64,000 bases of DNA, taken from NCBI RefSeq assembly GCF_003991155.1, contig NZ_CP031293.1; one strand, written 5' to 3'. Below, one piece after another: positions 2,983-53,777 of this stretch. The DNA comes from Escherichia coli. GTDB lineage: Bacteria; Pseudomonadota; Gammaproteobacteria; Enterobacterales; Enterobacteriaceae. Both the position numbers and the translations under genes were made by a program. The notes under the pieces were generated by a model. That model saw only the letters and a list, made by a program, of their open reading frames with translations. It was not told the origin of the DNA and did not search any database. Positions within the stretch are counted from its first letter, which is position 1. The number at the start of each line of letters is the position of its first letter.

Positions 2983-5109
2983 ATGAATATTGCCGCCAGT
3001 AGTGAACTGGTATCCCGACTTTCTACTCATCGCCGCGTGGTGGCGTTGGGAGATACTGATTTTACGGACGTCGCGGCAGTCGTCATTACCGCTGCGGATA
3101 GTCGCAGTGGCATTCTTGCGTTGCTTAAGCGCACCGGTTTTCATCTACCGGTGTTTTTGTATTCCGAACATACTGTTGAATTACCTGCGGGCGTTACGGC
3201 GGTAATCAACGGCAACGAGCAGCAGTGGCTGGAGCTGGAATCCGCAGCCTGTCAGTATGAAGAGAATTTGCTGCCACCGTTTTATGACACGCTGACGCAG
3301 TACGTTGAGATGGGTAATAGCACCTTTGCTTGCCCTGGACATCAACATGGTGCGTTCTTTAAAAAGCATCCTGCCGGACGCCATTTTTACGATTTCTTTG
3401 GCGAGAACATCTTTCGCGCCGATATGTGTAACGCTGACGTAAAATTGGGCGATCTGCTTATTCATGAAGGATCGGCGAAAGATGCGCAGAAATTTGCAGC
3501 CAAAGTCTTTCATGCCGATAAAACCTATTTTGTGCTGAACGGCACATCGGCAGCGAATAAAGTGGTGACGAATGCGCTGTTAACGCGTGGCGATCTGGTG
3601 CTCTTCGACCGTAACAACCATAAGTCGAATCATCACGGCGCGTTGATTCAGGCGGGGGCGACGCCGGTCTATCTGGAAGCTTCACGTAACCCGTTTGGTT
3701 TCATTGGCGGTATTGATGCGCACTGTTTTAATGAAGAGTATCTGCGCCAGCAAATTCGCGACGTTGCGCCAGAAAAAGCCGACCTGCCGCGCCCGTTTCG
3801 CCTGGCGATTATTCAGCTGGGAACCTATGACGGCACTGTCTATAACGCCCGTCAGGTGATCGATACCGTTGGGCATCTGTGTGATTACATTCTGTTTGAT
3901 TCCGCGTGGGTCGGTTACGAACAGTTTATCCCGATGATGGCGGATAGCTCGCCGCTGCTGTTAGAACTTAACGAAAACGATCCGGGGATCTTTGTGACCC
4001 AGTCGGTGCACAAACAGCAGGCGGGATTCTCACAGACGTCGCAGATCCATAAAAAAGATAACCATATCCGTGGACAGGCGCGTTTTTGCCCGCATAAGCG
4101 TTTGAATAATGCCTTTATGCTCCATGCTTCTACCAGCCCGTTCTATCCGCTGTTCGCCGCCCTGGACGTTAACGCCAAAATTCATGAAGGGGAGAGTGGG
4201 CGTCGGCTGTGGGCTGAGTGCGTTGAGTTGGGTATTGAGTCGCGCAAGGCTATTCTTGCGCGCTGTAAGCTGTTCCGCCCGTTTATCCCGCCTGTTGTTG
4301 ATGGCAAATTGTGGCAGGATTATCCGACGTCAGTGTTAGCCAGCGACCGCCGTTTTTTCAGTTTTGAGCCGGGGGCGAAGTGGCACGGCTTTGAAGGATA
4401 TGCCGCGGATCAGTATTTTGTTGATCCGTGCAAGCTGTTACTCACCACGCCGGGTATCGATGCCGAAACCGGCGAATATAGCGATTTTGGCGTTCCAGCG
4501 ACGATTCTGGCGCACTATCTGCGTGAGAACGGCATTGTGCCGGAGAAGTGCGATCTCAACTCCATTCTGTTCTTATTAACTCCGGCGGAAAGCCACGAGA
4601 AGCTGGCACAACTGGTGGCGATGCTGGTGCAGTTTGAACAGCATATTGAGGATGATTCGCCGCTGGCTGAGGTGTTGCCGAGCGTTTATAACAAATATCC
4701 GGTGCGCTATCGCGACTACACCCTGCGCCAGTTGTGTCAGGAGATGCACGATTTGTATGTCAGTTTCGACGTCAAAGACCTACAAAAAGCGATGTTCCGC
4801 CAGCAGAGTTTCCCGTCAGTGGTGATGAATCCCCAGGATGCGCATAGCGCTTATATTCGCGGTGAAGTGGAGTTGGTGCGGATTCGTGATGCCGAAGGGC
4901 GAATTGCGGCAGAAGGGGCGTTGCCTTATCCACCTGGCGTGCTTTGCGTGGTACCCGGGGAAGTCTGGGGTGGGGCGGTTCAACGTTATTTCCTTGCGCT
5001 GGAAGAAGGCGTGAATTTGTTGCCGGGATTTTCGCCGGAGTTGCAAGGTGTCTATAGCGAAACCGATGCGAATGGCATGAAACGGTTGTACGGTTATGTG
5101 TTGAAGTAA
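2983..5109 (+). CDS. speC: Ornithine decarboxylase, constitutive
   Basis: 708-aa ORF; full-length match to the Orn/Lys/Arg decarboxylase (fold I PLP) family, ending '...GMKRLYGYVLK'. Confidence 0.93.
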   Translation: MNIAASSELVSRLSTHRRVVALGDTDFTDVAAVVITAADSRSGILALLKRTGFHLPVFLYSEHTVELPAGVTAVINGNEQQWLELESAACQYEENLLPPFYDTLTQYVEMGNSTFACPGHQHGAFFKKHPAGRHFYDFFGENIFRADMCNADVKLGDLLIHEGSAKDAQKFAAKVFHADKTYFVLNGTSAANKVVTNALLTRGDLVLFDRNNHKSNHHGALIQAGATPVYLEASRNPFGFIGGIDAHCFNEEYLRQQIRDVAPEKADLPRPFRLAIIQLGTYDGTVYNARQVIDTVGHLCDYILFDSAWVGYEQFIPMMADSSPLLLELNENDPGIFVTQSVHKQQAGFSQTSQIHKKDNHIRGQARFCPHKRLNNAFMLHASTSPFYPLFAALDVNAKIHEGESGRRLWAECVELGIESRKAILARCKLFRPFIPPVVDGKLWQDYPTSVLASDRRFFSFEPGAKWHGFEGYAADQYFVDPCKLLLTTPGIDAETGEYSDFGVPATILAHYLRENGIVPEKCDLNSILFLLTPAESHEKLAQLVAMLVQFEQHIEDDSPLAEVLPSVYNKYPVRYRDYTLRQLCQEMHDLYVSFDVKDLQKAMFRQQSFPSVVMNPQDAHSAYIRGEVELVRIRDAEGRIAAEGALPYPPGVLCVVPGEVWGGAVQRYFLALEEGVNLLPGFSPELQGVYSETDANGMKRLYGYVLK

Positions 5110-50171: not shown

Positions 50172-50328
50172 TACTTGTAGCCCGACGTATTCGTCGGGCT
50201 AATGTCTTTACCCGATATTGTCTCCTTTTTCTGTAAAACCATGACGTAATCACCTATCTTTGCTCGCGGTTTCATCAAGGATAGGCTGACTGAAACGGTT
50301 AAGCGGACAAGGATGCGGGAGAGGGGGG

Positions 50329-51219
50329 ATGGACATTTTTATTTCGAAAAAGATGCGCAATTTCATTTTATTAGCGCAAACCAATAATATTGCCCGGGCG
50401 GCAGAAAAAATCCATATGACGGCTTCGCGATTTGGCAAAAGCATTGCCGCGCTGGAAGAACAAATTGGCTATACGCTATTTACCCGCAAAGATAATAATA
50501 TCAGCCTCAATAAAGCCGGACAGGAACTGTATCAAAAACTGTTCCCGGTTTATCAACGACTTTCTGCGATTGATAATGAAATCCATAACTCAGGACGTCG
50601 TTCACGAGAAATTGTGATAGGCATAGATAATACTTATCCGACCATTATTTTTGATCAGTTGATTAGTCTCGGAGATAAGTACGAAGGCGTGACCGCCCAG
50701 CCAGTTGAGTTCAGCGAAAATGGCGTTATCGATAATCTTTTTGACCGTCAGTTAGATTTTAATATCTCCCCACAGCATGTATCTGCACGAGTTCAGGAAC
50801 TGGAAAACCTGACTATCAGTGAACTACCGCCGCTGCGATTGGGCTTTCTCGTTTCTCGCCGTTATGAAGAGCGACAAGAGCTGCTTCAGGAGCTGCCCTG
50901 GCTACAAATGCGCTTTCAGAATCGGGCCAATTTCGAAGCAATGATTGATGCGAATATGCGTCCTTGTGGGATCAATCCCACCATTATTTATCGTCCCTAC
51001 AGTTTTATGGCCAAAATCAGCGCCGTGGAGCGGGAACATTTTCTGACGGTGATCCCGCATTTTGCCTGGCGACTGGTGAATCCGGCAACGCTGAAATATT
51101 TTGATGCGCTGCACAGACCGATGTATATGCAGGAATATCTTTATTCAATCAGAAATCATCGTTATACCGCCACGATGCTTCAGCATATTGCTGAAGATCG
51201 TGACGGGACAAACCATTAA
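50329..51219 (+). CDS. ygfI: LysR-family transcriptional regulator
   Basis: 296 aa; N-terminal wHTH '[32 protein letters not shown]'. Confidence 0.8.
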
Positions 51220-52310
51220 CCCAGCATCGATCCGGTTGCAATTAAATTACGGTGTAAGTCGAAGACGTGGCTAAGATCGTGGTGAATATGTCCGCCGGAC
51301 GCATTTTCCAGATAGCGATGCAGATAATCCCGACACATAGGATGTGCACAATGATCAATGGTGGTGCGGATAACGTTGTTATACGGATCCTGTGCGCCAA
51401 ATCCACTGACCGCTTCGCTCCATAAATAACGTGCCGCACGCAACATGGCGGCGTTCATAAACAGATCCATGCCAATGCCGAAGAAAAACGACAGGCGAGG
51501 GACGAAGCCATCAATTTTCAGCCCGGCGGAGATTGCTGCTTTGATGTACTCAATCCTATCGGCGAGCGTAAATGCTACCTGCTGCACGCAGTTGGCACCC
51601 GCTTCACCCATGTGGTAACTGCTGATACTGATGGTATTAAATCGCGGCATGTTGCCGGAACACCAGGCGATGATGTCTGCGATAATACGCATTGACGGTT
51701 TTGGCGGGTAAATATAGGTATTGCGGCAGAGGTACTCTTTGAGGATATCGTTCTGAATGGTGCCGGTCAGTTTATCGGATGTAACACCTTGCTCTTCTGC
51801 GGCGACGATATAAAACGCCAGTACTGGTAGCACTGCGCCATTCATGGTCATAGAAACCGACATTTTATCCAGCGGGATCTGGTCGAACAGGACTTTCATA
51901 TCTTCCACGGTGTCGATAGCGACGCCCGCTTTGCCGACGTCGCCCGCCACGCGTGGGTTATCGGAGTCGTAGCCTCGGTGGGCGGCAAGGTCAAACGCAA
52001 CGGAAAGACCTTTTTGCCCGGCGGCCAGGTTACGGCGATAAAAAGCGTTGGACTCTTTTGCTGTCGAGAAACCAGCATACTGACGGATGGTCCACGGTTG
52101 GGTGGTATACATAGTGGCACGCGGGCCACGAACGTAGGGTGGCAAACCAGGAAGAGTACCCGTCACCTCCAGATTATCGAGATCGGCTTCGGTATACAGC
52201 GGCTTGATAGCGATCCCTTCCGCGGTTTGCTGAACCAGCGAGTCGACAGTTTTCTCCCGACGGCTCAATTCATTGTTGGCAAGCTGTTGCCACACCAGCA
52301 CGTTAGACAT
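51216..52310 (-). pseudogene. scpA: Methylmalonyl-CoA mutase (ScpA/Sbm) 5' fragment fused to a short non-mutase tail; remnant of a deleted scpA-argK-scpB-scpC operon
   Basis: From '[44 protein letters not shown]...' through '...[11 protein letters not shown]' the ORF follows the MCM N-terminal barrel; it then switches to '...[46 protein letters not shown]' and stops 3 bp inside the convergent ygfI stop. Only about 320 of roughly 714 mutase codons are present, and no argK/scpB/scpC ORFs exist. Confidence 0.75.
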
Positions 52311-53498: not shown

Positions 53499-53777
53499 TT
53501 GTATCAGTGGTTAACGCGCAGCTTAAAAGATCAGGGATTTGCGCTAATGCATTTCGCTCAGCGAGTTCGCGCCCTGGTTGTGTTGAATGGCGTGGCGTTA
53601 TTGCCTCAGTTTGCCTGTAAACAGGGGCTTGCGAACGGGGAACTGGTGCGCCTGTTTGCACCGTGGAGCGGCATACCCAGACCGTTGTATGCTTTACTTG
53701 CGGGGCGAAAGGGGATGCCCGCCATTGCGCGATATTTTATGGATGAGTTAACCACGCGGCTTGCCAACGGGGTCTGA
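53499..53777 (+). pseudogene. yqfE: LysR-family regulator C-terminal fragment (yqfE-like pseudogene)
   Basis: 92-codon ORF resembling only the C-terminal effector domain of a LysR regulator; no HTH; K-12 carries a pseudogene at this position. Confidence 0.4.

Follow-up and report, generated by a model that had tools for sequence, protein, structure and literature searches.

The window analysed here is a 64,000-nt stretch of Escherichia coli chromosome; 1,251 bp of it were compared with strain D8 and showed 100% identity. The gene order in the relevant part of the window is mscS–argO–yggE–srsR(ygfI)–remnant–argP–(yqfE-like remnant)–rpiA–serA. Between argP and srsR, strains K-12 and SCU-313 have the operon scpA–argK(meaB)–scpB–scpC, whose place in the window is taken by a single minus-strand ORF (51216..52310) of 364 amino acids, counted from the scpA ATG. 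Its descent from scpA is evident from ≈97% DNA identity and from the same position between argP and srsR. The srsR gene is intact in the window and convergent with the remnant, and the two stop codons overlap by 4 bp. The features are listed in Table 1.

Table 1. Features of the scpA–scpC remnant and the adjoining regulator gene (window positions).
Feature	Position	Strand	Description and basis	RefSeq label
srsR (ygfI), LysR-family regulator	50323..51219	+	Annotated in D8; ORF listed 50329..51219	
scpC-derived tail	51216..51354	-	Last ~46–50 codons and native scpC stop, in frame with the scpA part; match to L002 12384–12522 and K-12 ScpC C-terminus	acetyl-CoA hydrolase, incomplete, missing N-terminus
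Microhomology CCGCACCACCATTGA	51355..51369	-	Encodes RTTI+; junction of the 4,273-bp scpA-to-scpC deletion	
Unique scpA sequence between both junctions, TATAACAACGTTAT	51370..51383	-	Part of YNNVI	
Retained 10-bp direct repeat copy ACAGGATCCG	51384..51393	-	Junction of the 63-bp deletion; alignment to SCU-313	
scpA-derived 5' part	51394..52310	-	Codons 1 to ~306, ends ...SGFGA; collinear with SCU-313 locus L002 7092–8008 and K-12 scpA, ~97% identity	methylmalonyl-CoA mutase family protein, incomplete

The remnant is already known, being annotated as a pseudogene in RefSeq, and is nothing new in kind. In D8, which is identical over the compared stretch, RefSeq has two abutting partial pseudogenes at this place, named “methylmalonyl-CoA mutase family protein, missing C-terminus” and “acetyl-CoA hydrolase, missing N-terminus”. 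The RefSeq/PGAP annotation of remnant genomes records the same remnant at the same coordinates, but covers the truncation only; the internal 63-bp deletion described below, its repeat and the in-frame fusion are unannotated. A full-text literature search yielded no description of the remnant, and its matches to “sbm” were to sbmA, sbmC and SBML.

On the other side of argP, towards rpiA, the window has a 231-bp remnant of a LysR substrate-binding domain (≈53547–53777, plus strand), the equivalent of the K-12 pseudogene yqfE. At the yqfE-like position, SCU-313 has ≈4 kb encoding a full LysR regulator, an FMN azoreductase, a DUF1471 protein, a ferric-reductase-like protein and an FAD oxidoreductase, so that the window and K-12 appear to carry a second deletion scar beside argP. 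The ferric-reductase-like gene near argP in SCU-313 is itself interrupted by IS1.

The remnant was compared with the intact SCU-313 operon (locus L002) by BLAST and base by base, and proved to consist of three collinear pieces: scpA nucleotides 1 to ≈927, a 39-bp island, and the last ≈140 nt of scpC. The island is 100% identical to L002 8072–8110 and comprises the retained repeat copy, the unique scpA sequence and the microhomology of Table 1. The alignment offsets of the first and second pieces differ by exactly 63 bp, and both pieces include the 10-bp ACAGGATCCG, which occurs twice in intact SCU-313, 63 bp apart (L002 8009–8018 and 8072–8081), and once in the window. The undeleted allele thus has a direct repeat flanking the lost segment, of which exactly one copy is kept in the window, as in a slippage deletion.

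A preliminary description of this DNA had suspected a small in-frame deletion in the scpA remnant at 51340–51420, with the loss of a conserved mutase block of roughly 19 residues. The gap falls inside that interval and is real, a clean 63-bp (21-codon) loss relative to intact operon DNA, although the size had been underestimated: alignment to intact scpA gives 21 residues. (The missing block can be written in two ways because QDP is repeated.) The missing residues are those of the block that had been named there, LRTH(S/C)QTSGWSLT(A/E)QD, which the window lacks and the enzymes of K-12, P. shermanii and human have; across the solved mutases (P. shermanii, human) it hardly varies. Alignment to K-12 Sbm, the check that had been proposed, showed that the K-12 and SCU-313 ScpA proteins both carry the block, whereas the window does not. 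The HMMER match of the remnant to 1REQ chain A likewise splits at the point of the 63-bp deletion.

The alignment offset jumps a second time, by 4,273 bp, at the 15-bp microhomology that lies 14 unique bases beyond the 63-bp junction. The two copies of this microhomology are CCGCACCACCATTGA in scpA (encoding RTTIE) and, in scpC, CCGCACCATCATTGA in SCU-313 and CCGCACTATCATTGA in K-12 (encoding RTIID); the window-type junction reads CCGCACCACCATTGATCATTG. This deletion took the 3' half of scpA, all of argK/meaB and scpB, and most of scpC, and joined the remains of scpA and scpC in frame, so that the ORF terminates at the native scpC stop.

Junction-specific queries were compared with 5,426 complete E. 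coli genomes. The query for the 63-bp junction was a 44-mer designed so that undeleted genomes cannot seed a match. It was found in 1,110 of the 5,426 genomes, exactly in 1,106 of them, and the large-deletion junction was found in 1,112. The 63-bp block was present in 4,284 genomes, so that block and junction together account for 5,394 of the 5,426. A synthetic query representing the 63-bp deletion in an otherwise intact scpA matched none of the 5,426 genomes, while one representing the large deletion with the block retained matched two, HH45 and HH97, which are exactly the difference between 1,112 and 1,110. The 63-bp deletion was accompanied by the 4,273-bp deletion in all 1,110 genomes, all matches listed for either junction sit in the context of the remnant, and none of the 5,426 was a genome of the window lineage with just one of the two deletions. 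The clade with the remnant includes the ST131 strain EC958, 536 and E2348/69, which we take to be phylogroup B2, and we presume the clade as a whole to be B2.

Other states of the locus were seen in the same searches. Strain MB51 has a fragment of a “methylmalonyl-CoA mutase family protein” with 53% coverage, and ≈32 genomes lacked any match to the query for the 63-bp block; scpA may have been lost in further, independent ways in these strains. Each query also matched one record labelled as a plasmid, which may be a replicon with the wrong label, or else a plasmid that carries a piece of the chromosome.

The 63-bp gap is a real in-frame deletion and not an assembly artefact, since 1,110 complete genomes share the 44-nt junction and the window is identical to D8 over the stretch compared. 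The opposite reading, that nothing was deleted and that the local sequence is a natural variant of a functional Sbm or a product of alignment or assembly, has virtually no probability left. It is refuted by the presence of the block in K-12 and 4,284 genomes and by the junction in the complete genomes; an intact scpA lacking the block, the case that would have spoken against the preliminary description, was found in 0 of 5,426 genomes.

HH45 and HH97 carry the large deletion in the same register (4,273 bp) with the 63-bp block kept, but on a K-12-like allele (junction around positions 3079–3110 of the respective loci, L004 and L005). We considered these strains as a possible ancestral intermediate of the window lineage and rejected the idea, because their junction bases differ and their scpA part is K-12-like. 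In the HH45/HH97 junction both distinguishing bases are of the scpC type (CCGCACTATCATTGA; CCGCACTATCATTGAT-A), and in the window both are of the scpA type (CCGCACCACCATTGA; CCGCACCACCATTGAT-C). Over the 918 nt of the scpA part, HH97 and K-12 differ at 4 positions, compared with 34 between the window and K-12 and 30 between the window and HH97, and both the scpA part and the scpC tail of HH45 and HH97 resemble intact non-B2 alleles. Judging from these sequences, the two strains probably represent an independent recurrence that used the same microhomology and had its crossover at the opposite end. This suggests at least two independent origins for the 4.27-kb operon deletion in this register, and the RT(T/I)I microhomology may be a hotspot at which separate lineages repeatedly lose the sleeping-beauty-mutase operon by deletion. 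Since HH45 and HH97 have the large deletion alone, it can occur without the 63-bp one.

The anatomy of the smaller lesion (a perfect 10-bp repeat, one copy kept, and a deletion length equal to the repeat spacing) points to slippage. Slipped-strand mispairing, or short-direct-repeat recombination, would have taken place between the two ACAGGATCCG copies in scpA, which encode the repeated peptide QDP, with loss of one copy and everything between them; this would have taken the conserved 21-residue block out of the substrate-binding domain of the mutase. A separate, microhomology-mediated deletion of 4,273 bp would have produced the non-functional chimeric remnant, and both lesions were fixed before the sampled clade diversified.

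To see how the ACAGGATCCG pair ranks among the repeats of the locus, a virtual remnant of 1,158 nt was built from the SCU-313 allele with the large deletion only. In this sequence no other exact direct repeat is as long as the ACAGGATCCG pair, and no other repeat of 9 bp or more has its copies so close together; of the codon shuffles, 11% contained a repeat of 10 bp or more within 100 bp. The pair is a priori the most likely site for a slippage deletion, and its nearness to the large junction therefore needs no special explanation. For the repeat to be perfect the allele must have GAT at Asp-309, where K-12 and HH97 have GAC. An 80-mer with the perfect repeat was matched exactly in ≈1,480 of the block-bearing genomes. 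At the thresholds used, the search of K-12 detected no 10-bp repeat and no 15-bp microhomology: the left copy of the repeat has GAC in place of GAT there, and the scpC copy of the microhomology has two mismatches. Both repeats are allele-dependent.

Spontaneous lacI deletions in E. coli are reportedly the classic case of this kind of short-direct-repeat deletion. Like them, the segment lost from the remnant is bounded by repeats, one copy is kept, the length equals the repeat spacing, and a site has been used again independently, here for the 4,273-bp deletion. Unlike them, the events in the remnant are natural, fixed in a large clade and in frame; we saw no difference in mechanism. That they keep the frame simply follows from the repeats, which code for repeated peptide motifs.

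The order in which the two deletions arose bears on how the smaller one is to be understood. The preliminary description had taken it for the continued decay of an already inactivated gene; decay of the remnant is borne out by the later deletions and substitutions described below, while its place as the second event is an order that we infer. We consider it probable, if only just, that the large deletion came first and that the 63-bp loss followed as neutral decay, at what would then have been the best slippage site in the remnant. The 63-bp deletion was never seen in an otherwise intact gene among the 5,426 genomes, although 4,284 of them keep the block and ≈1,480 of these have the perfect-repeat allele, which fits a lesion tolerated only in a dead gene. 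The remnant went on to collect similar repeat-flanked deletions, and the large deletion does occur alone, in HH45 and HH97. Against this order stand the lack of any single-deletion genome in the window lineage, the short stem of the clade, and the expectation that the small deletion is the more frequent event. The stem has 4 fixed differences (1 nonsynonymous, N, and 3 synonymous, S) in ≈1.1 kb, from a comparison of 10 sampled remnants with three outgroup sequences. A stem this short places both deletions, 14 unique bases apart, within a narrow interval, which also fits one complex event.

The reverse order, in which the 63-bp deletion inactivated scpA and what was left of a useless operon was lost later through the 4,273-bp deletion, is in our estimation rather unlikely. 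A block that is nearly invariant across the solved mutases could hardly be lost without killing the enzyme, so the small deletion alone should have sufficed, and slippage should be more frequent at a perfect 10-bp repeat with copies 63 bp apart than at an imperfect 15-bp repeat with copies 4.3 kb apart; the small deletion could thus have been the first if loss of function was neutral in the ancestor. The presence of both lesions in all 1,110 genomes is equally compatible with this order, but the small deletion on its own was found in 0 of 5,426 genomes, even though ≈1,480 of the block-bearing ones have the perfect repeat, whereas the large deletion is seen alone. We think it unlikely that a single complex replication event made both deletions, with the nascent strand slipping 63 bp forward, copying ≈29–39 nt, and then switching template 4,273 bp downstream at RT(T/I)I. 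Such an event would account for the closeness of the junctions, for a retained island of 39 bp that includes both microhomologies, and for the fixation of both deletions in all sampled members of a clade with a short stem. However, each type of deletion is seen separately elsewhere (the large one in HH45/HH97, and the repeat-flanked 39-bp and ≈80-bp ones later in the remnant), and proximity requires no coupling, since no other site in the remnant is as good a substrate for slippage as the 10-bp pair, whatever the position of the large junction.

On sequence grounds, the remnant is a fragment of an scpA orthologue and not a functional mutase, because a full-length mutase domain, the conserved block and a cobalamin-binding domain are all missing from it. 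The Pfam match to PF01642 (MM_CoA_mutase) covers profile positions 1–291 of 512 only, and the alignment to 1REQ chain A ends at about residue 326, with a small second stretch at 335–353. PF01642 was the only Pfam family found in the ORF, with no match to a cobalamin-binding domain, and RTTI is followed by ≈46 residues of ScpC. The remnant is orthologous to and syntenic with K-12 ScpA/Sbm (“sleeping beauty mutase”, b2917), to which the first ≈306 codons are ≈97% identical in DNA. Unlike the K-12 scpA–argK–scpB–scpC operon, it lacks the 21-residue block and everything of the barrel and the B12 domain after RTTI; the locus lacks argK, scpB and most of scpC, and conserved glycines have been substituted.

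These substitutions, G231S in ISISGYH and G253R in TLADG (K-12 ScpA numbering), lie at positions where the solved mutases shown carry Gly. Strain E2348/69 has both deletions, yet retains the ancestral residues at most of the sites mutated in the window (T110, P177, G231, G253, D268, A270 and V287), and the substitutions in the window therefore post-date both deletions. Among the 10 sampled genomes of the remnant clade, the derived changes were 24 N and 19 S, compared to 0–1 N and 3–14 S between the intact alleles compared (including 1:14 and 0:11). The intact alleles are under strong purifying selection, which is relaxed in the remnant relative to these orthologues. The N/(N+S) ratio of 0.56 within the clade is far above the value for intact genes, but below the strict neutral expectation of 0.71–0.76 (P = 0.003–0.03). 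Any of three factors could explain the shortfall: recombination between remnant and intact alleles, the small size of the sample, or mild selection against products that do harm.

The same ratio might be taken as a sign that the ORF is in use. In that reading the in-frame ScpA'-'ScpC chimera of 364 residues is expressed and kept open by selection, which the in-frame 63-bp, 39-bp and fusion events then reflect; we find this hardly credible. The broader claim, that the fusion is an expressed chimeric protein whose frame is selected in about one fifth of sequenced E. coli and which was trimmed by the 63-bp and 39-bp deletions, is very improbable. No stop codon interrupts the ORF in the window, in any of the 10 sampled remnant genomes or in HH45 and HH97, and in one genome (Z135-2) it is annotated as a CDS (WP_000073273.1). 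Under neutrality, however, only ≈1.2–1.4 stop codons would be expected, with a probability of 0.24–0.31 of seeing none, so that their absence is unremarkable; in-frame deletions are expected when the repeats encode repeated peptides (QDP...QDP; RTTI/RTII); and recombination with intact alleles would raise synonymous polymorphism. The product would lack half of the barrel and the B12 domain, glycines conserved in all solved mutases shown are replaced (G231S, G253R), the 39-bp deletion takes a further 13 residues, and the ≈80-bp deletion alters the frame of the tail in E2348/69. We therefore considered selection for an open frame and judged the case for it weak. The remnant behaves like a textbook pseudogene under erosion by short-repeat deletions.

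Two of these deletions were found in sub-lineages and share the repeat-flanked anatomy of the 63-bp one. At least 528 of the 1,110 remnant genomes have a 39-bp in-frame deletion (13 residues) between ACCTGGCCGCC and ACCTTGCCGCC; this number was obtained with the GCCACC variant of the junction query, since the GCCGCC 45-mer was confounded by two-piece matches in undeleted genomes. The deletion (L003 2371–2381) is absent from the window, where the equivalent position is ≈51992–52030. It occurs with both Ala and Thr at residue 110, and must therefore either have recurred or have been moved by recombination. A deletion of ≈80 bp between two copies of CACGATCTT, equivalent to ≈51190–51282 of the window, was found in E2348/69 and AB_24_S34. 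It takes the end of the scpC tail together with the 3' end of srsR, and it alone shifts the frame of the remnant, in these two strains. The srsR gene also has an internal stop in EC958, A42 and Z135-2, and is a pseudogene in several remnant-bearing genomes, which suggests that it decays once the operon is gone.

These findings have little import beyond bookkeeping: the scpA remnant has two lesions, not one, both with the anatomy of short-repeat deletions. The 44-nt junction provides a clean marker, found only together with the large deletion (1,110 of 5,426 complete genomes). The independent recurrence of the 4.27-kb deletion and the decay of srsR are mildly useful side results, and the decay of srsR in lineages without the operon hints that the role of this regulator is tied to the operon.
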